From Clostridia bacterium (GTDB lineage Bacteria > Bacillota > Clostridia > Christensenellales > UBA1242), in contig JAGAOQ010000021.1 of the NCBI GenBank assembly GCA_017623705.1, positions 9,485-73,484 of the forward strand: 64,000 nt of DNA, given 5' to 3'. Below the pieces are notes generated by a model. That model worked only from the letters and a program-made list of their open reading frames with translations, did no database searches and was not told the DNA's origin. This document shows positions 14,087-58,868 of this stretch, piece by piece (position 1 is the stretch's first letter; each line of letters opens with the position of its first letter). Made by a program: the position numbers and the translations under genes.

Positions 14087-14993
14087 GCTCCTTTTTGAAA
14101 TTTAAGATGTCGACATAACTTTCCAAACGAGTTTCCAAACCCGCAGTACCGTCTTGCGTATCCATGGTTAAGACCAAAATTGGCTTATCCTTAACTTTAC
14201 GAGTAATCATTTCGTTGACCATACTGTCTGGACCGCACGGGAAAGTGGTTAAAATCACAATCCCGTCCACTTCGTCGTGGTACTTTGCGATTGCCCCCAC
14301 AAGATGTTGGTTGTATCCCCAGGGCAGTGTTGAACTAATTTCTTTGAACTGGTGGATACATTCGTAAGCATCGAAGTGTTCCGCAATGATTGGTTCACAA
14401 TTTAATTGACGCAAGCTACGTAAAATCGGTTCACCCACAAACTTGTCGCCGATATTGTAAGCATGAGCAACGACCAAAACTTTATTTTTTTTGGTTTCAC
14501 GCAAAGTTTGGATTTGAGCTTGACTGCGGAACATTTCAAAGTATTGTTGTGCTTGACGAGCTTTGGTATAAGCATCTTTAATCACCGCACCTTTCAAACC
14601 GAGGAATTTACCCATTTTTTTGAAAGCTTTGTATTCTGCACGTGGACCTTTTTTATGTAAATTATAAAAGAGCAGTTGGATTTCACGATCACGGAAAGTG
14701 TTCCTTACCAAATCAATTTGTGCCAAAAATTTCGTACACATTTGAGCTCGATAAGCAAATTCAACCCGAGGAACAAAAATGTAATCACATTTCCCGATTA
14801 ACCAGTCAATATGCCCCAACAAAATTTTCGTCGGTAAACAAGCTTCGTCAATCGCTAAATTTTCCCCACGAGTAATAATATCTTTGGTCGTTACTGGACT
14901 AATCACATACTCAATGCCCGCTTGGTCAAAGAAAGTTGTCCAAAACTTCTCATTTTTATAATAAAGTAAAGCTCTTGGTATCCCAATTTTCAT
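14073..14993 (-). CDS. activase-associated protein (DUF2229-like), first gene of the triad
   Basis: 306 aa. MKIGIPRALLYY N-terminus is typical of this family. It overlaps the next gene by 14 nt. Confidence 0.55.
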   Translation of the reverse strand: MKIGIPRALLYYKNEKFWTTFFDQAGIEYVISPVTTKDIITRGENLAIDEACLPTKILLGHIDWLIGKCDYIFVPRVEFAYRAQMCTKFLAQIDLVRNTFRDREIQLLFYNLHKKGPRAEYKAFKKMGKFLGLKGAVIKDAYTKARQAQQYFEMFRSQAQIQTLRETKKNKVLVVAHAYNIGDKFVGEPILRSLRQLNCEPIIAEHFDAYECIHQFKEISSTLPWGYNQHLVGAIAKYHDEVDGIVILTTFPCGPDSMVNEMITRKVKDKPILVLTMDTQDGTAGLETRLESYVDILNFKKEHAHG

Positions 14994-16745: not shown

Positions 16746-16822
16746 TGGTGGAGGTGAGCGGATTCGAACCGCTGACCCCCTGCTTGCAGGGCAGGTGCTC
16801 CGACCAGCTGAGCTACACCCCC
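16746..16822 (-). tRNA. tRNA-Ala (anticodon UGC), CCA encoded
   Basis: Hand-folded cloverleaf: GGGGGTG/CACCTCC acceptor stem with the G3:U70 Ala identity pair, anticodon stem CCTGC/GCAGG, loop CCTGCAA, T-loop GGTTCGAATCC. Confidence 0.9.
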
Positions 16823-16836
16823 AGGTTCTAAAAAAT

Positions 16837-16865
16837 ATTTTAGAAAACTTGTAGCTTTTTGTCAA
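16837..16865 (-). promoter_or_regulatory. sigma70-type promoter for tRNA-Ala (TTGACA-17 nt-TAAAAT)
   Basis: The minus strand reads ttgacaaaaagctacaagttttctaaaat. The -10 box ends 14 nt before the tRNA 5' end. Confidence 0.6.
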
Positions 16866-16871
16866 GTACTA

Positions 16872-16880
16872 TGTTATAAT
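16872..16880 (+). promoter_or_regulatory. extended -10 promoter TGTTATAAT for tRNA-Arg
   Basis: TGTTATAAT lies 19 nt upstream of the tRNA-Arg 5' end. The same 9-mer or near-identical copies recur before gyrB, yidC, 35486 and 62513. Confidence 0.6.
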
Positions 16881-16899
16881 TATTTTGTTCAAGCAAAAC

Positions 16900-16976
16900 G
16901 CACCGCTAGCTCAGCTGGATAGAGCGTCTGTCTACGGAACAGAAGGTCGAGCGTTCGAATCGCCCGCGGTGCACCA
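16900..16976 (+). tRNA. tRNA-Arg (anticodon ACG), CCA encoded
   Basis: Hand-folded: acceptor GCACCGC/GCGGTGC, D-arm GCTC-AGCTGGATA-GAGC, anticodon loop CTACGGA, T-loop TTCGAAT (one A:C mismatch in the T stem). Confidence 0.9.
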
Positions 16977-17071
16977 CAAGTAAATAATACGAACGGAAAA
17001 TTTGCGATAACTGGCAAATTTTATGCCAGGGATTTTTGGGGCGTGAAAATTGAATTAAATATTTAAGACAG

Positions 17072-17100
17072 AAAACTCAAGTTGAAATTTGAGTTTTTTT
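17072..17100 (+). terminator. rho-independent terminator after tRNA-Arg
   Basis: aaaactcaa-gttgaaat-ttgagtttt followed by a T-run. Confidence 0.6.
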
Positions 17101-17206
17101 GTTAATTAAAGTTAATGTTGCTTTTTGTATTTATCATTTATGAATATTCCATTTACACACTTTAATATTTTGATATATACTATTTAAGTATTTTTGACGA
17201 TTTCAT

Positions 17207-18595
17207 ATGATAAACTTTGATAAAGAATCCCAGTTATATGAAAAGTCGTTAGACGTGAATTATAAAAAGTCTAATGGTGTTTTTTACACTGATTTAAATT
17301 TGGCTCAATTAATAATGAATGAAATTGAGTTTAAACATCCCGATGTAAGAGTAATAGATCCTTGTTGTGGTACTGGTGTTTTTGTAAAAATAGCCGTTGA
17401 TAAAGGATTAAATAATGTTTATGGAATTGATTTGGATAAAACTGCTATTAGTCTTGCAAAAAAGATGTGTCCATCAGCTAATTTAAAATCAATGGATAGT
17501 ATCTCGAATGATTTTAACGAGATTATGAAAAAATTTAAAATCAAAGAAAAATTTGACTATGTTATTGGGAATCCGCCATATGTTCCTTTAACATCTGCAT
17601 CATTAAAAACACAAGAATATTTATTTTTAAGACAAGTTAAAAATTATGGGGATAATCTTTACATTGCTGCACTGTTACGAGCCAAGGAGATGTTAAATGA
17701 CGACGGAATTATTTCTTACATTATACCTAAAAATTTTTTGCACGTTGATTCTTATAGTTTTCTAAGAAGGGAGTTATTGCGCGATTTTTCAATCATTTCT
17801 ATTGTTGACATCGGGATGTATTTCAAAAAAGTTAGAGGCGAACAGATTGTTTTAACATTGCAAAAGAAGAAAAATGCCAATAATGTTATTAAGTTAAAAA
17901 AACTAATCAATAATAAATTTGAGTTTTTAACTGAAATAAGACAAGATTTTTACACAGACAAAATTATTATATTTGAAAATAAAGAAGATGTTGAAATTTA
18001 TAGAAAATTTAACAAATCATACACAACATTAAACGATTATGTTAATGGTTACGTTGGCAGGGGACATTCGCAATCTTCAAATGCAATTTGCGGTAAAGAT
18101 ATTAGAAAATTTGGACTCAAATCTCTACCACAACAAGAAGATGGTAGCCAAATATTTATACAAAATATTTATAGTGCGGAAGCTGGTATAATAGCTTGTT
18201 TCGGTGGAAAACTTGAAGCAAATGAAACCGTTACCATTTTTACTGATGGTGATTCAACAATGTGCAGGTATGTATTAGGCATTATCCATTCGAAATTGAT
18301 AAATTTCTATTTACTTAAATATTGTTATAATAATTCATCTGTAACAATGCACGTTGATGCTAAATATTTACGTAGTATTCCTTTTATTGTTGATAATGAA
18401 AATTTTAACATTGTTCTAGAATACGTCGATAAACTAGAAAGTTTGGACTATATGTCAAATGAGTGGTTTGAATATTGTAACCTGTTGAATAGAATAGTTT
18501 ATAGAATTTATAATTTATCAGAAAAAGAAATTAATTTTATTGATGCATTTATTAAAAAAACTCAATCAAAAAAGTGGGACAGAAATGGCAAATAG
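17207..18595 (+). CDS. N6-adenine DNA methyltransferase (gamma-class, Eco57I/TaqI-like)
   Basis: 462 aa. GVFYTD (motif X), IDPCCGTGVF (motif I), IGNPPYVP (motif IV), long C-terminal target-recognition region. Confidence 0.8.
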   Translation: MINFDKESQLYEKSLDVNYKKSNGVFYTDLNLAQLIMNEIEFKHPDVRVIDPCCGTGVFVKIAVDKGLNNVYGIDLDKTAISLAKKMCPSANLKSMDSISNDFNEIMKKFKIKEKFDYVIGNPPYVPLTSASLKTQEYLFLRQVKNYGDNLYIAALLRAKEMLNDDGIISYIIPKNFLHVDSYSFLRRELLRDFSIISIVDIGMYFKKVRGEQIVLTLQKKKNANNVIKLKKLINNKFEFLTEIRQDFYTDKIIIFENKEDVEIYRKFNKSYTTLNDYVNGYVGRGHSQSSNAICGKDIRKFGLKSLPQQEDGSQIFIQNIYSAEAGIIACFGGKLEANETVTIFTDGDSTMCRYVLGIIHSKLINFYLLKYCYNNSSVTMHVDAKYLRSIPFIVDNENFNIVLEYVDKLESLDYMSNEWFEYCNLLNRIVYRIYNLSEKEINFIDAFIKKTQSKKWDRNGK

Positions 18596-19349
18596 AGCAA
18601 ATGATTTAACGGGAAAAGAATGGTTGCAAAATTCTTTTAGTATTTGGCGAGACCTAAAAAAAACACAAGAAGAGAAGAATCTTGGGCATCCTGCGTCTTA
18701 TCCAATAAGTTTGTGTGAAAAATTAATTAAAACATTTGCAAGAAATAATTGTAATGTCCTAGACCCTTTTAATGGAGTTGGAACAACAATGGTTGCAGCC
18801 GAAAATTTAGGATGCAACGGAACTGGAATTGATTTATCAGAAGAATATTGTAATATTGCAAGAAAAAGAATTACATCAGATAAAATAAAGATTTATCAAG
18901 GTGATAGTTTTAAGTTAGTAAATTCTCTAGAGAAAAATAGCTTTGATTTAGTTGTAACTTCACCACCTTATTGGGATATTCTTAATCAAAAAAGGACAGT
19001 TGACCAAAAAAATAATATCAATTATTCAGATAAAAATAATGATTTAGGCAATATCGATGATTATTGGAAATTTATAGAATCGCTTAAAAACTTATTTGCA
19101 AATATTTATCCTTTATTAAAACATAAATCATATTGTTTAATAAATGTTATGGATTTGAGAAAAGGCAGTAACTTTTATTCTTTCCATAGCGACCTCGCCT
19201 ATGCATTAAAAGATGTTGGCTATATATTTGATGATTTAATTATTTGGGATAGACAAGCTGATTACAATAATATGAAGACTCTAGGTTATCCATATAAATT
19301 TAGGATTAACAAAGTTCACGAATATATTTTGATTATGTATAAGGAGTAA
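18585..19349 (+). CDS. N4/N6 DNA methyltransferase with motif I upstream of SPPY (apparently permuted beta-class)
   Basis: Start moved to ATG 18585 (MANRANDLTGKEW). HPASYP...VLDPFNGVGTT (motif I) is followed by VTSPPYWD (motif IV), then a IIWDR...HEYILIMYK block. Confidence 0.75.
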   Translation: MANRANDLTGKEWLQNSFSIWRDLKKTQEEKNLGHPASYPISLCEKLIKTFARNNCNVLDPFNGVGTTMVAAENLGCNGTGIDLSEEYCNIARKRITSDKIKIYQGDSFKLVNSLEKNSFDLVVTSPPYWDILNQKRTVDQKNNINYSDKNNDLGNIDDYWKFIESLKNLFANIYPLLKHKSYCLINVMDLRKGSNFYSFHSDLAYALKDVGYIFDDLIIWDRQADYNNMKTLGYPYKFRINKVHEYILIMYKE

Positions 19350-19353
19350 AAAA

Positions 19354-20241
19354 ATGAACATACAAATGGCATATTTATTAGGAATGATAATTGGTAACGG
19401 AGAAATACAAAGAAACAATTCTGCTACTAAAATTTTAATAAACATTCCACATAAGAACGAAAGAACAGATGATGGGAATGATGTAAAAATTTATGTAAAA
19501 GCAAGTATCACTGATATAAAATCAGCTTTAGAGCCAACCATTGGTACAATATTAAACTGTACTCAAAACAAATCGGTATCAACGATTTATTTTGAAAAAC
19601 CAAATTCTGATTATTTAATAACTGAAATTATGAGAATGTGTCAAAACGAAAGAACATTTGAAACAATGCACGTTCCACAGTATTTTTATACTGCATCACG
19701 AGATGAGATACTTTATTTTTTACGAGGCTTTTGTGATGTAACTGCTTATATACGAAAAAGTAATTGTTATATTGATGGAATAACACAGAGAGTGTATATT
19801 GAAATTATGCACAACTGGTATGTTGCTGCAGAAATATGTAATTTACTTAAAATAGTAGATATACCTGTTCAAACCATAGATTGGGCACATCCAAATATGA
19901 GAGATGGTAAATTAGCAAAATATAATCAAGGCAATCATAATTTTTGGAAAAAAGAACATCAAATTAAAATTACAGCAAATGAATTTTTGCCAATAGGTTT
20001 TACTGTTATTCACAAAAACAATGCACTTGAAAAATTTGCGAATGAAATGATTAACTATTATTCTAGGTTAGGCAAAAATATATCTGAAAAAACCCACAAA
20101 TTTTATTGGCAAAAAAAGAAGAAGCGTAGTTTACGTCCAAGCCATCCTGGAGAAAGTGATGTGTCAATTCCATCAGAAATTAGAGGGAAACATTATGATT
20201 GTTGGCAAGATATTGCAAATGATTTAGGTTATAGGGAGTAA
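19354..20241 (+). CDS. hypothetical protein with two degenerate LAGLIDADG-like motifs (possible DNA-binding or specificity component)
   Basis: 295 aa. AAGGAG RBS. AYLLGMIIGNGEI near the N-terminus and ILYFLRGFCDVTAYI about 110 aa later resemble LAGLIDADG helices, but the usual acidic catalytic positions are N and T. By-eye assignment only. Confidence 0.35.
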   Translation: MNIQMAYLLGMIIGNGEIQRNNSATKILINIPHKNERTDDGNDVKIYVKASITDIKSALEPTIGTILNCTQNKSVSTIYFEKPNSDYLITEIMRMCQNERTFETMHVPQYFYTASRDEILYFLRGFCDVTAYIRKSNCYIDGITQRVYIEIMHNWYVAAEICNLLKIVDIPVQTIDWAHPNMRDGKLAKYNQGNHNFWKKEHQIKITANEFLPIGFTVIHKNNALEKFANEMINYYSRLGKNISEKTHKFYWQKKKKRSLRPSHPGESDVSIPSEIRGKHYDCWQDIANDLGYRE

Positions 20242-20243
20242 TT

Positions 20244-20717
20244 GTGAGGGAATTTGATTTATATGAACCAATGGTTAATTGGTTAAAACAATACTTAGAG
20301 GGGAAATATAAAAATTGTGAAATCTTTGTAGAAGATACTCATTCTCAAAGGTTAGACCGAGCTTTACATAAATATGGAATAATAAATGATTTAGCAACTG
20401 GTGTCGATATTCAAATAGATGTCCTCGGTATTGTTAGAAAAAATGAATCATATAAATTATTCTTTATTGAAGCGAAGATTACAAAACTTACGCTGAGAGA
20501 TTTAGGTCAATTATGGGCATACTGCAAGTTGATTGACCCAGAAGAAGCATTTTTATTAACATCTGAAAGTTTTGGTTCTTTGAATAAAATTTTAAGAACT
20601 TTTGGGCGAGAAGATTTATTAGATTTTGGCAATGGAAAAAAAATAAAAAAGATGAAAGTTGGAATTTGGAATGTTGCTAGAAATAATATCGATTATATGA
20701 CACTAATACCACAGTAA
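20244..20717 (+). CDS. small PD-(D/E)xK-type nuclease (candidate restriction endonuclease)
   Basis: 157 aa. GTG start with AGGGAG RBS. VDIQIDVLGIV...LFFIEAK gives a D...ExK arrangement with a downstream QLWAY helix, as in restriction-endonuclease-fold proteins. Confidence 0.5.
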   Translation: MREFDLYEPMVNWLKQYLEGKYKNCEIFVEDTHSQRLDRALHKYGIINDLATGVDIQIDVLGIVRKNESYKLFFIEAKITKLTLRDLGQLWAYCKLIDPEEAFLLTSESFGSLNKILRTFGREDLLDFGNGKKIKKMKVGIWNVARNNIDYMTLIPQ

Positions 20718-20758
20718 AATTAAAAAATTCATATTTGGCAGTTAAACGTGTGCTTGTC

Positions 20759-20780
20759 TATATATACAAGTGGCGTCGCT
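20759..20780 (+). repeat. left copy of flanking direct repeat (inside a 14-bp inverted repeat, 20748-20761 / 20791-20804)
   Basis: Read directly from the sequence: gtgtgcttgtctat...atagacaagcacac encloses the repeat. Confidence 0.7.
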
Positions 20781-21237
20781 TCGCTCCGCCATAGACAAGC
20801 ACACTAAGCAAGCCAAAACGATGGCGAAAATTGGGTCGGTGCGCAGGCTTTTCACCGGACCCAATTTTTCTTTCCGCCGTCGTTGTTTTTTTCGGCACTG
20901 ATTTTTATCTGTGCCGTTTTAAATTTTTTGCATAGTCTTTTCGCTGTCAATGTTCTTTTTCATTGACAGTTTATATGCTAAAAATTTTGGGTCTTGCTTT
21001 TTCTAATACGGTGTGCTAGTCTATTCGCTGGTACGAAAAAAGACCACGCAAAATGACAATTAAATAGTATTAGTAAATTTTGTTAAGTGAACGGACCGCA
21101 ACTCGAAAAATTAACGAAGAATCAAATTCGGCCCGATTAAAAAAATAAAAAGTAAAAAATTGCATTTATGGGCGTTAAAGAAAATAGTGGCCAAATTTTC
21201 TTTGCGTCTTTTTTTGTCCTTAAAAGGAGTTAAAAAA

Positions 21238-21366
21238 ATGCAAAAACCAACAATCGTAATTAAGAATGATTTAGATTTATCTCTAATTAACAATGAGTTC
21301 ATTGTGGCAATGCTGAATTTAATTCTTAAGGATAAGGAGCAGGAAAATGGACTACATCAAAACTAA
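21238..21366 (+). CDS. small hypothetical protein (42 aa)
   Basis: AAAGGAG RBS 8 nt upstream of ATG 21238 (MQKPTIVIKNDLDLSL...). No family recognised. Confidence 0.35.
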   Translation: MQKPTIVIKNDLDLSLINNEFIVAMLNLILKDKEQENGLHQN

Positions 21367-21417
21367 AATCTATTTTGACGGTAGCCATTACATTGGCATT
21401 CCCAAAACAGCTCAGTA

Positions 21418-22224
21418 TTGGAAGAAAAAAAACACAAATCTAAACCACAAACAAATGAAACAGAAACAAAAGTTAAAGCAATGTTAAGTGAGAAAACAAA
21501 CGAAACTAAACAAGAGAAAACAAAACGAGTAATTAAAGAATTAGACAATGAAATAAAAAATTTTGCACACAGTAAATCAATTGTCGATAAAGTTATCAGT
21601 AAATATAAACGCAATCGTATTGTCAGATTAACTAGATTAAGTCGTAAAGTTGGATTACAACAATGGACACATTTTTGCACATTTACATATGATTCTAATA
21701 AATTAACAGAAACTGAATTTAGAGAAAAATTTTTAAATTGTATAAGACATTTATCCAATCGTAAAGGTTGGAAATACATTGGTGTCTTTGAACGCAGTCC
21801 AGAATTACAAAGACTTCATTTTCACGGCATCTTTGTCATTCCAGAAATGGTCGGCGAAATCATAGAAACCAAAGATTATTCTACCAAAACCCACCAAATG
21901 CAAATTGCTCATCAAAACACTTTCTTTTTAACACGCTTTGGTCGTAACGATTTCAAACCTATAGAAGATAATGCTACGGCACAGAAAGCCGTTAGATACA
22001 TCTTGAAATATATTCGTAAGACCGGTGAGAAAGTGATTTATTCTAAACACTTACAAACCTATTTTGTAACCGATGTTATGGAAGATGATGTAATTTGCAC
22101 AATCGGACAAGAGAACCGCAAGATTCTTCTCTTCGATGATTTTAAGTGTTGGGATTTGGTAAACGGAAAACTGTTTGGCATGGTGAGTAAAAAGTTGATA
22201 GATAACTTGCCAAAAGCTTTCTAA
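21418..22224 (+). CDS. rolling-circle replication initiator (HUH endonuclease, two-tyrosine type); true start probably 21347 via a frame change at the A8 tract
   Basis: FCTFTYD (motif 1), RLHFHGIF (HUH), AVRYILKYIRK (YxxKY as in the phiX174 gpA family). The track ORF starts at a TTG. An RBS-led ATG at 21347 lies in another frame. Confidence 0.7.
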   Translation: MEEKKHKSKPQTNETETKVKAMLSEKTNETKQEKTKRVIKELDNEIKNFAHSKSIVDKVISKYKRNRIVRLTRLSRKVGLQQWTHFCTFTYDSNKLTETEFREKFLNCIRHLSNRKGWKYIGVFERSPELQRLHFHGIFVIPEMVGEIIETKDYSTKTHQMQIAHQNTFFLTRFGRNDFKPIEDNATAQKAVRYILKYIRKTGEKVIYSKHLQTYFVTDVMEDDVICTIGQENRKILLFDDFKCWDLVNGKLFGMVSKKLIDNLPKAF

Positions 22225-22393
22225 GTGTCTTGTTCCGCCAGAGTGTAAACGGAATTGTTGCTCGGTCAAGGGTAAAGTGAATCGCTAGCGACCCTTGACC
22301 GTTAAGTAAAATCTTTAACTAAAAAATTACTAACAATTCCGTTTAACTCGTGGCTGTCGCAAGACAAAACAAAAAACATAAAGGAGGTAAAAA

Positions 22394-23902
22394 ATGAAAA
22401 CAGCAGTTGTGTATGCCCGATACAGCAGTGATAGTCAATCTGAGCAGTCGATTGAAGGTCAATTGCGAGTTTGTCAAGAGTACGCCAAGAATAATCAAAT
22501 TCTGATTGTTGACACTTATATCGACAGGGCAATGACGGGAACAAATGATTTAAGACCAGACTTTCAACGAATGATTCGAGATAGTAGCAAACGACAATGG
22601 AATTATGTGATTGTCTACAAACTTGACCGTTTTTCCAGAAATAAATATGAAACAACAATTCATAAACACACATTGCACAATAACGGAGTCAAAGTTTTGT
22701 CTGCTATGGAAAACATACCTGATACACCAGAAGGCATTATTTTAGAATCCTTGCTTGAAGGAATGAATCAATACTATTCCGCAGAGTTATCACAAAAAGT
22801 TCACCGTGGCTTAAACGAAAGCTACTTAAAAGGTCAATTCACTGGCGGAGCAACTTTGTATGGCTACGATATTGTGAACAAAAAAATTGTTATCAATCCG
22901 ACCGAAAGTGAAATAGTAAAAGAAATCTTTGCTAAATATGCACTTGGTTATACTGGTGTTTCAATTGCCAATGACTTAAAAAGTCGTGGCGTAAGGACAA
23001 AAGAAGGAAAGTATCTTAATGTCGCAAGAATTTACAAATTGATTAAAAATCCTAAATTTATCGGACAAACTATTCACAATGGTAAAGTTTATACTAACAT
23101 CTATCCAGCCATTATTGATGAACAAACTTGGCAAAAAGTTCAAGATGTTCGCAATACCAATAAACACTCTCATGGCAGGAAGAAAGAAGTTTATAATTTC
23201 ATCTTATCTGGTAAGTTAGTTTGCGGTCATTGTCATCATTTAATTGTTGGCGAAAGTGGGACTTCGGAAACCACGGGCAAACATTATTACTATAATTGTT
23301 TAAGTCGCAGAAGAAAGAAAGCCGTGTGTAATTTCCACGCTGTCAAAAAACAATGGCTAGAAGATTTAGTTATTCAAACAACTTGGCAGTTATTAAAAGA
23401 TAAAAACCAATTAGATGAAATTGCCAATATGATTTACCACAAACATCAAAATCTTAAAGATAAATTATCTAATGTTAAAGCATTAGAAATACGAAAGAGT
23501 AGTGCCGAAAAAGCAGTGAAGAATTTAATTACAGCACTGGAACAAGGTATTATTACCGAACAAACCAAAACCCGCTTACAAGAATTAGAAAAAGAAATTA
23601 TGCAATACAATTTTGAAATTGAACAAGAAAAACAACGAACCTACACCTACTTAACTTTGGATATGATAAAAAATTATTTATACAATGTTATACCTAATGA
23701 CAGTGTGCATACTATATCTGCACGCAAACACATTGTGAAATTATTTATTCGCGAAATTATTTTTGATAATCAAACATTAACAATTACTTACAATTTTACG
23801 GATAACAATCCCAGCAAACAACCGCTCGACGAAATCAACGAAGTCATCACTATCTCTAATAGTTCAAACAATCAAGAACCCCTTGCACCAATTCTAACGT
23901 AA
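22394..23902 (+). CDS. large serine recombinase
   Basis: 502 aa. AVVYARYSSDSQ catalytic-Ser motif, KLDRFSRN, recombinase domain, Cys4 zinc ribbon (CGHCHH...YYYNC), coiled-coil C-terminus. AAAGGAGG RBS. Confidence 0.9.
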   Translation: MKTAVVYARYSSDSQSEQSIEGQLRVCQEYAKNNQILIVDTYIDRAMTGTNDLRPDFQRMIRDSSKRQWNYVIVYKLDRFSRNKYETTIHKHTLHNNGVKVLSAMENIPDTPEGIILESLLEGMNQYYSAELSQKVHRGLNESYLKGQFTGGATLYGYDIVNKKIVINPTESEIVKEIFAKYALGYTGVSIANDLKSRGVRTKEGKYLNVARIYKLIKNPKFIGQTIHNGKVYTNIYPAIIDEQTWQKVQDVRNTNKHSHGRKKEVYNFILSGKLVCGHCHHLIVGESGTSETTGKHYYYNCLSRRRKKAVCNFHAVKKQWLEDLVIQTTWQLLKDKNQLDEIANMIYHKHQNLKDKLSNVKALEIRKSSAEKAVKNLITALEQGIITEQTKTRLQELEKEIMQYNFEIEQEKQRTYTYLTLDMIKNYLYNVIPNDSVHTISARKHIVKLFIREIIFDNQTLTITYNFTDNNPSKQPLDEINEVITISNSSNNQEPLAPILT

Positions 23903-23989
23903 TTCTAACTCACAGACGAAACCTAATAATTCCAATGCCATAATTTGGAAATCTTTGACCTTTTTGGATTTTAATTATATATTTTATCT

Positions 23990-25009
23990 ATGAAGCATAA
24001 AATTTTGAAAACTTTTATCTTAACATTTATTTTATTATTACCAATGGTAATCCTTGTAGGATGCGGAACAACAAATGAGTCAAATCAAGACAATGAATTG
24101 AAACAAGATAATGTATTTTATTTTGATGACGCTAATATCAACATTAACAACATTAATTTCAGTTTTTCTTGTTCAGAAACCAAAATTCAAAATACTGAAC
24201 TAAGAGTTACAATTACTGCAACTAATACTTTACTTAAAGACCAAATTCTTAATTTAGATAGTATAAAAGTAGTAAATGAAAAAACAAAAGTTGAATACAA
24301 ATATTCTGGTGCTACTTTTTATGGCGACATCACTTTGCAATATAATATAAAAACAAATTTATATTTTAATGCTTATATTCCAAGTTCTTATTTAACTGAA
24401 AACTATTACATTCAGTTTAATAACGGTGGCAATACTTATCGTATTAATTTATACGAAACACCAGATGAATTGAGAGAATCTCATACCGTTTCGTTCCAAC
24501 TTTTTTCTTACCCAAATTACAGCAATGTAAAGAATATTTCAGTTAAAGATAATAGGAAATTTGAAAAATATATTTATGAGAGTGGTGACCATCTATACTA
24601 TTGTGATACTTGGTATACTGATGAAGCAAGAACTAATGAATTTAATTGGAATTCCAAAATTACACAAGATGTTACTTTGTATGGATTTAAGTTTCCCAAT
24701 GTGCAATATTCAAGCAGTAGTGGAGAAACATTTGTATCAAAAATTAAATATGTTCCACAGGACGGAATTCTTGTTATTGATAGCTTTTCATCGAAAGTAT
24801 ATTTATCAAATTATGCCTTATATGATAATAATGATGTGAAAGAAATATATTTACCTAAAGAATTAAAAAAAATATACAATGGGAACTTTAATAAAATGAA
24901 TAATTTAGTTAAAATTCACTTTGCTGGAAGTGAAACCGAATGGAATGCCATAGAAAGCACTAGCACAATCCCATCAAATGTAACTATTATTTTTAATTCA
25001 AAGTATTAA
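23990..25009 (+). CDS. lipoprotein, function unknown
   Basis: Signal peptide with lipobox LVGC-G. N/Y/K-rich. The C-terminal IYLPKELKKIYNGNF...IHFAGSETEWNAI resembles BspA-type leucine-rich-repeat ends. Confidence 0.6.
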   Translation: MKHKILKTFILTFILLLPMVILVGCGTTNESNQDNELKQDNVFYFDDANININNINFSFSCSETKIQNTELRVTITATNTLLKDQILNLDSIKVVNEKTKVEYKYSGATFYGDITLQYNIKTNLYFNAYIPSSYLTENYYIQFNNGGNTYRINLYETPDELRESHTVSFQLFSYPNYSNVKNISVKDNRKFEKYIYESGDHLYYCDTWYTDEARTNEFNWNSKITQDVTLYGFKFPNVQYSSSSGETFVSKIKYVPQDGILVIDSFSSKVYLSNYALYDNNDVKEIYLPKELKKIYNGNFNKMNNLVKIHFAGSETEWNAIESTSTIPSNVTIIFNSKY

Positions 25010-25061
25010 ATTATCAATAATTTGAGTGTATAATATTAAACACAAACATTTGCTTGGAATT

Positions 25062-25090
25062 CTAGCGTGCCTTTATATATATAACAAGTG
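25062..25090 (+). repeat. partial extra copy of the flanking repeat (CTAGCGTGCCTTTATATATATAACAAGTG)
   Basis: It matches 25185-25211 except for a TA expansion, then diverges after ACAAGTG. Confidence 0.65.
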
Positions 25091-25184
25091 AATGAAAATT
25101 TGCGGTCAAAAATAGACTAAAAAAAATGGCTAATTTTAACAAAAAAAAGACGGTAATTTTACACAAAAATAGCAATTTGAGATC

Positions 25185-25219
25185 CTAGCGTGCCTTTATA
25201 TATAACAAGTGGCGTCGCT
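25185..25219 (+). repeat. right copy of flanking direct repeat
   Basis: CTAGCGTGCCTTTATATATAACAAGTGGCGTCGCT. Its 3' 23 nt match 20759-20780 apart from one extra A. Confidence 0.7.
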
Positions 25220-25240
25220 ACGTAGTACAAATATAAACTA

Positions 25241-25268
25241 AAAAAAGGACAGTGCTTTGTCCTTTTTG
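25241..25268 (-). terminator. rho-independent terminator of the dehydratase gene
   Basis: The minus strand reads aaaggac-aaagcact-gtccttttttt. Confidence 0.5.
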
Positions 25269-25314
25269 AAACACAAAAATTGTTTGTGCCAAGTGGTTGT
25301 TAGCGGGGAAGTCG

Positions 25315-26421
25315 TTATTTGTTTTCGCCGGCGTAGATTTTGTCTGCTTGCATTAAGAATTCACGGACTTGGCTTTCGGTAACGTGTAACATGTCTTTTT
25401 CTAACATATAATTGCTGGTCCATTCAACGATTGCTCGAATCGTGTTATCTATATTGTAGATAATGCGGTATCCTAACACGTTTTTTGCTTTTGTAATGTC
25501 CAAAGCCAATTTACTTGCTTCGTGGATAGTGTCTACTTTTTGTAAAACTTCATATTTTACTCTCGGTTCATGTTTACGATAATAATCTAAAAGCTGTTTA
25601 ATACTAATGCAGTTTTCATATTCAGGACCAATGTTATAACTTCCAGCAAATGCAACGTTCTCATATTGTAACATAGCTAACTTAACGTACATATATAATG
25701 GTTCAACCACATACTGAAAAGGACGAGTTGAATTTGGATTACTAATTACCACTGGTTCATTTTTAATCATGCTCTTGATACAATTAGGAATAATTCTATG
25801 CTCACCCCAATCACCACCACCAATAACATTACCAGCTCGACAAGTCGAAACACTCACACCATGTTCTGCGTATTTATCAGGATTAAAAAAACTTTTAATG
25901 TACGAATAGGTTACTAATTCACTACATGATTTACTATTAGAGTAGGGGTCATAACCACAGAGTGGGTCATTTTCAACAAATGGTTGACCAGAATCATTGT
26001 TTAAGTAAACTTTGTCAGTTGTAACATTGATTACACTTTTCACCGACGGTGTATTTCGAACGGCTTCCAACAAATTTACCGTTCCCATTACATTTGTTGC
26101 GTAAGTTTCTCTTGGTTGTTGGTAACCAGTAATCACAATCGCCTGCGCTGCTAAATGAAAAACAATTTCGGGCTTAAAATCTTGCATGACTTTAACTAAA
26201 TGATTGTAATCACAAATATCACCGACATGGTGTTCAATTAAATTTTTGCCATTGATTAGTGAAAACATATTAGGTGATGTTACTGGTTCAAGTGCATAAC
26301 CACAAACTTCTGCTCCTAATTCTCGTAAAAGAACAATTAACCAAGACCCCTTGAAGCCAGTATGTCCCGTAACAAAAACTCGTTTACCGTGATAAAAGTT
26401 TTTTAGCGTTAAAATGTCCAT
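25315..26421 (-). CDS. rfbG: CDP-glucose 4,6-dehydratase-like NAD-dependent dehydratase
   Basis: Start moved to ATG 26421 (AAGGGAAAA RBS). FYHGKRVFVTGHTGFKGSWL...LGAEVCGYALEP is the characteristic RfbG N-terminus. YSNSK catalytic motif. Confidence 0.8.
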   Translation of the reverse strand: MDILTLKNFYHGKRVFVTGHTGFKGSWLIVLLRELGAEVCGYALEPVTSPNMFSLINGKNLIEHHVGDICDYNHLVKVMQDFKPEIVFHLAAQAIVITGYQQPRETYATNVMGTVNLLEAVRNTPSVKSVINVTTDKVYLNNDSGQPFVENDPLCGYDPYSNSKSCSELVTYSYIKSFFNPDKYAEHGVSVSTCRAGNVIGGGDWGEHRIIPNCIKSMIKNEPVVISNPNSTRPFQYVVEPLYMYVKLAMLQYENVAFAGSYNIGPEYENCISIKQLLDYYRKHEPRVKYEVLQKVDTIHEASKLALDITKAKNVLGYRIIYNIDNTIRAIVEWTSNYMLEKDMLHVTESQVREFLMQADKIYAGENK

Positions 26422-26535
26422 ATTTTCCCTTTTTATGTTAATCAACGAGAAATAACAATTTAAGTTTAATTTAATCACGCAAAACTGTCAATGCAACAAG
26501 GAACTTGATTAGTTGGATTTTATAAGCTTCCGCCC

Positions 26536-27528
26536 TTAAAAGTTGTGCCAGTCGATGCCTTCTAGGTCGCTGTTGAATTCTTCGTAAGCTCCACAGAAGA
26601 CTGATGAAGTTTTGTCGCTGATTTGAATACTGAAAGTGTCTAAATCATAAGATAAATTTTCCAGCATAATGCCCGCTGTAAATTCGTCGTACGCAAAGAA
26701 AGGGAAGTGCTTTTGAAAAAGTTCTTTGATGTCTTTGGTTGTGTCTTTGGCTAAATATTCACTGATTTCATTTTTAATTATGTTGTCGTATTTTTGGTGG
26801 AAAATTTCTAAACATTTTTCGTTTGGGTATTTTTTCTCATCAATATTCCAATCTAGCCAAAAGCCAGTGTCTGTATCATGTGTATTCTCAATTGCATTGA
26901 ACATAAAATAATTGATAATATATTGACTGTGGCTTTCAATTTGTTTTCGCCACATTTCCACTGTTTCCAAGACAAAACTGATTTGTGCGTCAACTTCATC
27001 ATGTCGTTCTAAGGCACGTGCTAAAAGATAGCCAAAACCCAAACTATCTTTCTCAGTGGAAAACACACCTAAATTACCCAATTTAACTGCTTTTAATTTT
27101 GGTTTAACCAGTACTTCCAGTGCTTGTTCTTTCTGTTCTTGTTCTCGGTATCGTCGTGTGCGTTCTGCGAGTTTTAACTGTGCTTGTTTTTCTTTTTGTT
27201 TACGGTATAAAATAGCTACGCCATAAATTGAAATCGTCATCACTACGATAAATACCAAAGCATAAGTAATAACTAAATCTTCGTAATCAATCAAGCAAAC
27301 AATTCCGTACAAACCAAACAAGATACAATATAACGTTACTATTAGCACATCAAAAATCGTCATTAACCATTTTTCGTGCTTTTGTCGACAACGAATTAAA
27401 CGTCTCACAAATACCACAAGTGTGATAATTGACAACACGCAAATGCTAAGTTCTACAATCCCCCGTACATACCCGACTGCAACAACGTCATATTGACTGC
27501 TGGTGTTTTGAGCAACTTCCAAATTCAT
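26536..27528 (-). CDS. membrane protein with coiled-coil linker and unknown cytoplasmic C-terminal domain
   Basis: 330 aa. Three N-terminal TM helices, a K/E/Q-rich helix, then an acidic domain of about 180 aa. No family recognised. Confidence 0.55.
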   Translation of the reverse strand: MNLEVAQNTSSQYDVVAVGYVRGIVELSICVLSIITLVVFVRRLIRCRQKHEKWLMTIFDVLIVTLYCILFGLYGIVCLIDYEDLVITYALVFIVVMTISIYGVAILYRKQKEKQAQLKLAERTRRYREQEQKEQALEVLVKPKLKAVKLGNLGVFSTEKDSLGFGYLLARALERHDEVDAQISFVLETVEMWRKQIESHSQYIINYFMFNAIENTHDTDTGFWLDWNIDEKKYPNEKCLEIFHQKYDNIIKNEISEYLAKDTTKDIKELFQKHFPFFAYDEFTAGIMLENLSYDLDTFSIQISDKTSSVFCGAYEEFNSDLEGIDWHNF

Positions 27529-57840: not shown

Positions 57841-58062
57841 TTAGTTGTTGCTATTTTGCTTTTCGTACATTTTAATTTCATCTTTCAAGTCTTGAATTTC
57901 TTCTTGCATCGCAACATTATCGTCTTGTAGTTTGTTGATTTGTGTGTGGTAATGTGCAATGAAACCAAATTGAATCAAGAGTGTTACAATTAACACCGCA
58001 AAAGCTACCGTCGTAATTGTTACAACTAAACGTAAGCGTTTGAGTAAATCTTCCTTTTGCAT
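57841..58062 (-). CDS. FtsB/DivIC-like septum formation initiator (small TM coiled-coil protein)
   Basis: 73 aa. One TM helix followed by a heptad-rich segment (INKLQDDNVAMQEEIQDLKDEIKMYE). Confidence 0.55.
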   Translation of the reverse strand: MQKEDLLKRLRLVVTITTVAFAVLIVTLLIQFGFIAHYHTQINKLQDDNVAMQEEIQDLKDEIKMYEKQNSNN

Positions 58063-58068
58063 TGCAAT

Positions 58069-58077
58069 ATCATAACA
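58069..58077 (-). promoter_or_regulatory. extended -10 TGTTATGAT 6 nt upstream of the ATG at 58062
   Basis: The minus strand reads gtgttatgatattgcaATG. No SD sequence. Confidence 0.5.
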
Positions 58078-58118
58078 CTTCCAGCTATTTTTGGCAAAAC
58101 GAAAACATACAAATAACT

Positions 58119-58868
58119 ATGGCTTGGTATACCGCAATCTTTCTCGGTTTAGTGCAGGGGCTTGCCGAATTTTTGCCGATTTCGTCCAGCGGACATTTAC
58201 TTTTATTGCAAAGCTTTTTTGGTATCACCGACGGCGGTTTGTTACTTACATTATTGTTGCATCTCGCCACGTTGCTGGCTGTCGTCGTAGTTTATCACCG
58301 TCGCTTGTGGGACGTGCTGCGTCGCCCGTTTAGTGCGGAAACTTTGCAGTTAGGTGTGGCAACCATCATTACTTGCGGTATCGTGCTGGTCTTTCATGAC
58401 ATTATCGACAGTTTGTTTACCGTCCAAACTCTGCCGTATCTTTTTGTGGTGTGCGGAGTGTACTTGCTGTTACCAACGCTTTTTCGCCCACAAGCTAACC
58501 AACGTTTTTGGTGGCACGCCGTCGTCATGGGTGTTGCACAAGGCGTCGCTGTCGTGCCAGGGTTATCCCGCAGTGGACTAACCATTACCAGTGGACGGTT
58601 AGCAGGTATGACGGCAACGCAGTCCACCGACTTTTCGTTCTTGATGTCAATCCCGATTATTTTGGCGTCTTTGGTTTTTGAATTATTGCGTGGGGGCAGT
58701 GTGCAAGCTCTTGGTTTTGGGAACATTGTCTTGGCGTTTGTTACTGCCTTTCTGGCTGGTATCATGGCGATTAAGTTCATGCTTAAAGTAACCCGCAAGA
58801 TTGATTTGCGGTGGTTCGCCGTTTATTTGTTAGTCCTTGGTGTTGGTTTATGGTTTTGTCAAAGTTAA
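58119..58868 (+). CDS. uppP: undecaprenyl-diphosphate phosphatase
   Basis: Start moved to ATG 58119, which avoids overlapping the divergent gene. LGLVQGLAEFLPISSSGHL and PGLSRSG motifs. Confidence 0.85.
   Translation: MAWYTAIFLGLVQGLAEFLPISSSGHLLLLQSFFGITDGGLLLTLLLHLATLLAVVVVYHRRLWDVLRRPFSAETLQLGVATIITCGIVLVFHDIIDSLFTVQTLPYLFVVCGVYLLLPTLFRPQANQRFWWHAVVMGVAQGVAVVPGLSRSGLTITSGRLAGMTATQSTDFSFLMSIPIILASLVFELLRGGSVQALGFGNIVLAFVTAFLAGIMAIKFMLKVTRKIDLRWFAVYLLVLGVGLWFCQS

Follow-up and report, generated by a model that had tools for sequence, protein, structure and literature searches.

A small integrated element in the window (the whole 64-kb stretch of DNA that was analyzed, which has a G+C content of 38.9%) carries a rep gene that is probably disrupted by a real frameshift mutation that is specific to its lineage. 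According to this interpretation, the ancestral rep would have been one ORF of 292 codons that began at an ATG at position 21347, behind an AAGGAG sequence. Its Arg-28 codon, which is CGC in the nearest relatives, would have become AA, which would have merged two AAA codons into a run of eight adenines (A8) and thereby placed codons 29–292 in the -1 frame. Normal translation would now stop after 46 codons, and the 268 residue protein present in the database, which starts at a TTG, would be without the conserved N-terminal motif. Based on these two consequences, we infer that Rep is off, or nearly so.

The start of the rep gene

The Rep ORF as annotated extends from 21418 to 22224 on the forward strand, in the -1 frame, and its 268 residue product is identical to MBO5229740.1, which was identified by exact look-up and is described as "MAG: hypothetical protein [Clostridia bacterium]". 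No Shine-Dalgarno sequence precedes either its TTG start or an internal ATG (Met 21481). Reading of the sequence together with the ORF listing revealed an ATG at 21347 that sits 7 nt 3' of an AAGGAG (21334..21339, forward strand), and the context of this Shine-Dalgarno sequence and ATG, TAAGGATAAGGAGCARGAAAATG, was the same in all five relatives compared. If no shift takes place, the ORF opened by this ATG (21347..21487, forward strand) consists of 46 codons and a stop and encodes MDYIKTKIYFDGSHYIGIPKTAQYWKKKNTNLNHKQMKQKQKLKQC, which is made up of 28 residues of Rep followed by an 18 residue out-of-frame tail that has no counterpart in any relative.

The site at which the frame breaks is the A8 tract (21425..21432, forward strand). 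The 0 and -1 ORFs overlap at 21418–21487, and within this overlap there is an A_AAA_AAC heptamer (21427..21433, forward strand) that has the X_XXY_YYZ register of a slippery site in the frame of the ATG, with A21427 preceding the 0-frame codons AAA (21428–30) and AAC (21431–33). A -1 shift at the heptamer gives ...WKKKN-HKSKPQTNE... and rebuilds full-length Rep, the real body of which is encoded by the codons from 21433 onward within the annotated ORF. The original prediction had described this arrangement from the letters alone, and its reading held up for the TTG without an RBS, the ATG 7 nt after a perfect AAGGAG, the A8 tract inside the ATG-led ORF and the entry into the Rep frame by a -1 shift on A-AAA-AAC, for which the register is correct. 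The ATG-led ORF is also real, but its extent had been given as 47 codons ending at about 21490, a trivial discrepancy.

The 292 residue -1 fusion was used as the query for a homologue search of a collection of ~15 billion proteins. This search returned 3428 matches, the best 120 of which were 282–301 residues in length (almost all of them 289–293 residues), had 100% query coverage in nearly every case and carry PF23343 (REP_ORF2-G2P). More than 100 relatives are single ORFs of 289–293 residues that start MDYxKTKxYFDGSHYIGIP. This in-frame N-terminus corresponds to codons 1–29 of the window's gene (21347..21433, forward strand, frame mod3=2), which encode MDYIKTKIYFDGSHYIGIPKTAQYWKKK(N), and the N-terminus was in frame in every aligned homologue. 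Residues M1, Y3, K7, Y9, F10, D11, G12, S13, H14, I16, I18, P19, W25, and K26 were invariant in the alignment. Residues 9–19 were kept as [YF]FDGSH[YF]I[GA]IP in 113 loci, with two to seven synonymous codons in use at each position. The combination of a fixed peptide with free synonymous codons indicates that the N-terminal segment is translated and strongly constrained.

Because the homologues carry this N-terminus in frame, the alignment identifies ATG 21347 as the real start of rep and TTG 21418 as an artefact, by which the gene caller would have rescued a broken gene. The abutting of the two frames at the 5' end of rep is judged not to be a chance juxtaposition, since the 28 codons ahead of the tract encode the N-terminus that is conserved in the Rep family. 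The test set beforehand had been to compare the MDYIK... N-terminus with the homologues, and the finding that the segment is fused in frame in them supports the prediction that the 5' end of rep lies in another frame with an RBS-led true start.

The Rep family

Rep matched PF23343 with a score of 43.4 bits (cut-off 27.8, E = 4.4e-11), and its motifs FCTFTY, LHFHG (HFHG), and YILKYIRK (YxxKYIRK) were invariant in the alignments. With a profile score above the curated cut-off and with motif I (FxTxT), the HUH motif and the catalytic Tyr motif all present, the protein can be classed as an HUH rolling-circle Rep. The AF2 model of Rep (mean pLDDT 69) was confident in its core, residues 105–232, and had a pLDDT of less than 50 for residues 1–35. 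The top Foldseek matches in the PDB were Rep domains (AAV, vientovirus, and geminivirus), although these were weak (E = 0.018–0.11, TM ≤0.54). No PHROGs family was found for Rep, a tblastn search of plasmids gave no match, and a tblastn search of phages gave a single unannotated record with 39% identity.

The Pfam match, the three motifs and the fold matches to viral Rep endonucleases liken the protein to the PF23343 Reps of the plectrovirus ORF2/inovirus gene II type. It differs from these in that it belongs to an uncharacterized subfamily of 292 residue proteins of gut Clostridia which are always beside a large serine recombinase, and in that this subfamily has an extra, invariant N-terminal motif, YFDGSHYIGIP. 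Elsewhere in the window, another ORF listed with a TTG start and 268 residues (58062–58868) was considered as a possible second frameshifted copy. It encodes an unrelated membrane protein and its equal length is coincidental.

The frame break in related loci

Related loci were obtained from GTDB genomes (80), metagenomes (80), and viral contigs (3), and from exact-protein look-ups. About 116 of the loci, those in which the N-terminal motif could be recognized together with the core of Rep, were counted. A frame split at the W25–K29 junction was found in none of these loci, in which the longest A run at the junction was A7. The relatives have AAA CGC/CGA/AGA/AAG AAA at the site, the Arg codon breaking the run in the near relatives, and the heptamer is not present in them. 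The split is missing from every relative, even those with 94–95% nucleotide identity, which argues against its having evolved as a feature of the gene, and on these comparisons it is unique to the window's lineage. A scan of the JGI metagenomes for the exact flanks with any junction allele (CAGTATTGGAAGAAAN{0,6}AAACACAAATCTAAACC) found nothing; the close relatives come from ENA and Logan, not JGI.

The nearest relatives, L001, L090, and L093, are 94–95% identical to the window over about 1.3–1.45 kb. In these three loci and in L007, which likewise has 94–95% nucleotide identity, the junction is TGG AAG AAA CGC AAA CAC (WKKRKH), and in the window it is TGG AAG AAA AA AAA CAC, such that two A's stand in place of the Arg-28 codon with a net change of -1 base. 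The cluster-mates with 93–97% amino-acid identity all have WK[KR]RKHKSK, and elsewhere in the family the Arg-28 codon is CGT, CGA, AGA, AGG, AAA or AAG. The lesion, as aligned against any known relative, is CGC to AA and no simple change in homopolymer length.

There are two paths by which this lesion might have arisen. The codon could have passed from CGC to CGA and then AGA, changes that are both synonymous and both seen in the family, after which loss of the G would give the window's sequence. Alternatively, the codon could have become AAA, creating an A9 tract that then contracted to A8. No allele intermediate between CGC and AA was present among the related loci, and both paths are accordingly reconstructions. 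Derivation of the allele by plain A9-to-A8 slippage from that of a known relative was rejected, as neither A9 nor AGA was found in the matching context in any of them and the nearest all have CGC. The several steps that CGC to AA takes, and the lack of an intermediate allele, count against the favored reading. Of the homopolymer indel that the original prediction had offered as one of its three possibilities, the part that stands is that an indel disrupting Rep is the favored explanation; the part that does not is a simple difference in tract length from the relatives. Judged by the same comparisons, the A8 tract and its A_AAA_AAC heptamer are by-products of the mutation and not an evolved signal.

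The A8 allele in other assemblies

The exact 268 residue product is encoded on seven contigs, three of which were fetched: L087 (ENA ERZ28654259, sample SAMN15830135), L088 (Logan, SRR12529193), and L089 (Logan, SRR12529165). All three have the A8 tract, each is 99.98% identical to the window, and they have in common one SNP relative to it, at 20822. The A8 allele is present, with the window included, in four assemblies that represent different assemblers, at least two Illumina runs and two haplotypes. We infer that the runs belong to Xie et al. 2021, a study of the ruminant gut to which the record name XIEF21-1 points and which employed PCR-free Illumina NovaSeq 2x150 sequencing (PMC8199421).

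There are 19 A8/T8 runs in the 64-kb window and no runs of nine or longer. Several of the former (e.g., at 14485, 18656, and 34043) are well within long ORFs whose frames stay open on both sides. Across 918 kb of the relatives' loci there were 118 A/T runs of length 8, 14 of length 9, and one of at least 10. An artefact that collapses long homopolymers was rejected based on this same steep fall in the relatives and on the open ORFs at the three positions above. In exact look-ups against the ~15-billion-protein collection, the in-frame A9 and A6 versions of the window's Rep were both absent, as were the product of the 46 residue ORF and the Met-46 product.

The extent of the damage to rep

The frame of the window's rep is disrupted relative to its intact homologues and the gene can in this sense be termed a pseudogene. 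Lesions were also identified in four other loci of the family: in L034 the codon for W107 has become a stop, L065 has a nonsense codon, L042 has a frameshift near residue 62, and L114 has both a stop at codon 3 and an A6-to-A5 frameshift near residue 86. As these lesions are independent, and all away from the window's site, occasional inactivation of rep appears to be the background expectation for the family, with the deletion of one base from an A-run being one route to it. The changes unique to the window's branch comprise three synonymous and four to five non-synonymous changes (M211T, T279M, E283K, possibly S287N, and the junction), which are compatible with relaxed constraint but too small in number to establish it.

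The frameshift is the only lesion in the window's rep, the remaining 263 codons being intact and every residue that is invariant in the family being kept. This single lesion in an otherwise intact gene suggests that the inactivation is recent or incomplete, or that the gene is not wholly dispensable. Arguing against a loss of function, the recombinase gene, a 42 residue ORF and a candidate origin hairpin of the same element are all intact. Arguing against a dead Rep, the register of the heptamer is perfect and its motif is the same as that of the IS1 site, which has no established stimulator. Some full-length Rep may be made despite the frameshift; by analogy with IS1, the A_AAA_AAC/A8 site could leak a little full-length protein, or the gene could revert by the gain of one A.

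Leakage, recoding and other explanations

The extension of that possibility is that the frameshift is real and that the A8 tract permits a low level of Rep activity, as a leaky or reversible switch, such that Rep would be throttled and not dead. The routes to such activity would be -1 ribosomal slippage, slippage of RNA polymerase that adds an A, or replication slippage from A8 to A9 (phase variation). IS1 frameshifts at an A_AAA_AAC for which no stimulator has been established (PMC4066793), the shift being made by about 1.6–2% of ribosomes (PMC12903888). In the window the heptamer is likewise in register, and the remainder of the gene and the element is intact. The addition of one A would give WKKKKHKS, which is the natural junction in L012–L014, and the avoidance of runs of at least nine in the window, together with their rarity in the relatives, fits with instability of such runs.

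Several observations nevertheless make a switch of this kind unlikely. All four assemblies have only A8, and with the in-frame allele absent from the protein collection there was no indication of phase variation by tract length. In E. coli, shifting is much rarer on A_AAA_AAC than on A_AAA_AAG, and most documented transcriptional slippage in bacteria involves runs of at least nine (PMC5009743). The run here, at A8, is below the latter length (~9) and is not conserved, which speaks against transcriptional slippage. The product of a ribosomal -1 shift would have N as residue 29, which is a (near-)invariant K in the family. In addition, no stimulator was detected. The 100 nt 3' of the site had a predicted folding energy of -2.5 kcal/mol (z = +0.5), with 134 of 200 shuffles folding as well, and the wider region was no better than its shuffles (z = -0.13). 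The sole SD-like element, GGAAG, adjoins the slippery site, whereas a stimulator would lie about 10 nt upstream of it. Finally, there was no sign that selection keeps the arrangement. The more specific proposal, that the new A_AAA_AAC/A8 site is a de novo expression throttle that works by slippage of a few percent or by A8-to-A9 change, is by analogy conceivable and a little more doubtful still.

An evolved form of recoding is much harder to sustain. The original prediction had raised programmed -1 frameshifting or transcriptional slippage of the dnaX, IS1 or IS3 type, in which the 46 and 292 residue products would both be functional, and the site does have a heptamer of the canonical X_XXY_YYZ form in its 0 frame and ORFs that overlap in the 0 and -1 frames, and it lies in a gene of a mobile element, among which recoding is frequent (PMC5009743). 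However, about 116 related loci, including those with 94–95% nucleotide identity, encode Rep as a single ORF, none of them with the split. There is no 3' RNA structure to act as a stimulator, the SD-like GGAAG abuts the site, and the tail of the 46 residue product is without a counterpart in the relatives. The comparative data already largely refute programmed recoding, and we consider it very unlikely.

It is just as improbable that Rep is a functional, N-terminally truncated protein made from TTG 21418 or Met 21481, to which the upstream ORF would be irrelevant. The public annotation (MBO5229740.1) reads so, and the HUH core (residues about 105–232) is encoded entirely 3' of TTG 21418, but neither start has a Shine-Dalgarno sequence and the N-terminal motif is kept in every intact homologue, across 113 loci, the N-terminus being present in almost all of the best 120 protein matches. 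Homopolymers are well known as places where errors occur and the gene is otherwise intact, but a sequencing or assembly error masking an in-frame tract (A9 or A6), the last possibility in the original prediction, is less likely still given that A8 recurs in three other assemblies from different pipelines and at least two runs, with two haplotypes split at 20822, that the data are PCR-free Illumina reads of 150 bp, that A8/T8 runs in other long ORFs of the window leave the frame unbroken, and that CGC to AA relative to the relatives is no miscount of tract length.

The element surrounding rep

The element that would have suffered the Rep-disrupting frameshift includes a conserved 42 residue ORF (21238..21366, forward strand) that has a 20-nt overlap with the start of rep at its ATG. 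This ORF is upstream of Rep in L001–L006 and L090–L092 and its exact product was found on nine contigs. Downstream, an intact gene for a large serine recombinase (22394..23902, forward strand) encodes Resolvase, Recombinase, and Zn_ribbon_recom domains and matches the phrog_95 integrase; in this element family such a recombinase is always 3' of Rep. The module of 42 residue ORF, Rep and serine recombinase is conserved in MAGs of gut and rumen Clostridia (Christensenellales, "Onthoplasma", and others), often with several copies per genome.

About 545 nt upstream of rep there is a conserved hairpin (20748..20804, forward strand) with a perfect 14-bp stem and a 29-nt loop, the sequence of which is ATATACAAGTGGCGTCGCTTCGCTCCGCC and which contains the motif ATACAAGTGGCGTCGCT. 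This loop motif is exact in the distant loci L050 and L057, whose Reps have 46–51% identity to that of the window, and in which the stems differ and are still complementary. Based on this conservation pattern, the hairpin is a good candidate for the origin or nick site of Rep. A second copy of the 5' part of the loop, TATATAACAAGTGGCGTCGCT, is located at 25198..25219 (forward strand) without a hairpin, and the two copies bound a unit that is about 4.46 kb long. The two Logan contigs have their first bases at 20759 and 20763, and the last base of one is at 25217. These breaks fall exactly at the repeats of the unit and, as a hint of continuing heterogeneity or mobility of the element within the population, count against the favored reading. 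A search of 18000–27000 with Rfam, which included the G+C-rich region at 20740–20900, found no RNA gene. The tRNAs of the window are confined to 16746–16976.

Relation to known systems and significance

The closest parallel to the site is IS1 insA/insAB' (the A6C motif), which has the same heptamer in register in a gene of a mobile element and no established downstream stimulator (PMC4066793, PMC12903888). If the window's site behaved as in IS1, there could be a short product of the upstream frame together with a longer trans-frame product. The two systems differ in that the split and the motif of IS1 are conserved family-wide and both products have roles, whereas in the window they are found in one lineage only, with relatives that have a single ORF, and the motif arose through the loss of an Arg codon. 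The poly(A) frameshifts of Buchnera and Blochmannia that are rescued by slippage (PMC5009743) likewise consist of a single-base indel in an A-run of a gene that is otherwise intact, and a "corrective" or "savior-indel" likeness is that slippage could restore a protein close to wild type. The documented "savior-indel" cases, however, have tracts of at least nine, and the window's tract is an A8. Ordinary pseudogenes of integrated elements also have single disabling lesions, as the independent lesions in L034, L042, L065, and L114 illustrate. Compared to these, the window's rep has one lesion and intact neighbors and is hence either young or not fully dead. The frameshift is an ordinary phenomenon.

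The interpretation has consequences chiefly for annotation, in that MBO5229740.1 should be regarded as a mis-modelled fragment of a frameshifted 292 codon rep, and the RBS-led ATG of the ORF that encodes the invariant YFDGSHYIGIP motif as the proper start codon for this Rep family. It also illustrates that a slippery heptamer of textbook appearance can appear accidentally through one lesion, and that the label "programmed" should be given to a site on comparative data, not on the shape of the motif. Were the gene leaky, the site would offer a modest example of recoding as it is born. If the throttle were true, the integrated element would keep a trickle of Rep while escaping the cost of its full expression, and the window would offer a snapshot of how a "savior" indel in such an element gives rise to programmed recoding. 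The element itself, with its origin-like hairpin, 42 residue ORF, HUH Rep, and serine recombinase, is uncharacterized and widespread in gut Clostridia, and is arguably of more interest than the frameshift.

A Hairpin Upstream of rep and the Putative Boundaries of the Element

A perfect inverted repeat with a 14-bp stem (GTGTGCTTGTCTAT / ATAGACAAGCACAC) and a 29-nt loop was identified at window positions 20748-20804, which places it some 545 nt 5' of the frameshifted HUH Rep gene, rep. Part of the loop, ATACAAGTGGCGTCGCT (hereafter the loop motif), is matched exactly in two distant relatives, L050 and L057, whose Rep proteins are 46-51% identical to that of the window. The stems of these two loci have a different sequence and have kept their complementarity (GGCGTGTACTTGTT / AACAAGTACACGCC). 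The hairpin is a likely origin or nick hairpin for Rep.

The 5' part of the loop occurs a second time, without a hairpin, at 25198-25219 (TATATAACAAGTGGCGTCGCT), directly after the gene for a 339-residue lipoprotein, and a further partial copy lies at about 25064-25090. Together, the copy within the hairpin and that at 25198-25219 flank a unit of approximately 4.46 kb. The start points of independent Logan contigs were 20759 or 20763, and the end point of one was 25217. This pattern suggests a branch in the assembly graph at the edges of the unit, of the kind that an excised form, a tandem form or an empty site would produce. In the relatives examined, the copy within the hairpin was the only one found within the sequence compared.

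The hairpin falls in a non-coding, G+C-rich stretch (20740-20900) for which an Rfam search returned no match. This stretch also contains position 20822, which is T in the window and C in three near-identical assemblies (L087, L088 and L089), and is the sole SNP across the 4.2-6.8 kb compared.

Other Features of the Rep-Recombinase Module

A 42-residue ORF (21238-21366; product MQKPTIVIKNDLDLSLINNEFIVAMLNLILKDKEQENGLHQN) with an AAGGAG of its own lies ahead of rep and extends over the rep ATG, giving an overlap of 20 nt. The ORF is kept upstream of Rep in relatives, and no family in Pfam or PHROG matched its product. Translation of the two genes may be coupled. Downstream, the stretch that separates rep from the serine recombinase gene carries nested inverted repeats at 22246-22345, in which outer arms of 14 bp (22246-22259 and 22332-22345) surround inner arms of 11 bp (22263-22273 and 22291-22301); these repeats could act as a terminator or recombinase site, or could serve as a single-strand origin.

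Elsewhere in the window, an ORF at 58062-58868 was observed to have both the 268-residue length and the TTG start of the annotated Rep. We rejected this ORF as a counterpart of Rep, as its product is an unrelated hydrophobic membrane protein and the likeness is coincidental.

In the region directly upstream of the element (16746-20717), tRNA-Ala and tRNA-Arg genes in divergent orientation come first. Beyond them lie two genes resembling DNA methyltransferases (Pfam N6_Mtase and N6_N4_Mtase) and two ORFs, of 295 and 157 residues, without an assigned family. The equivalent place in four related loci (L002-L005) holds other defence-like cargo, namely radical SAM, SRA and GIY-YIG genes. This region looks like a variable island adjoining the Rep-recombinase module.

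Rep Pseudogenes and Homopolymer Runs

Four further pseudogenes of the Rep family, with independent lesions, were identified among the related loci (L034, L042, L065 and L114): two carry nonsense mutations, one a frameshift, and one a stop at codon 3 together with an A6-to-A5 frameshift. A/T runs in the window numbered 47 of length 7 and 19 of length 8, with an abrupt cut-off at that length and none of 9 or more. The 918 kb of related loci (L001-L175) also showed a steep drop, with 692 runs of 7, 118 of 8, 14 of 9 and a single run of at least 10. These distributions are consistent with selection against A/T runs of at least 9 nt in these genomes.
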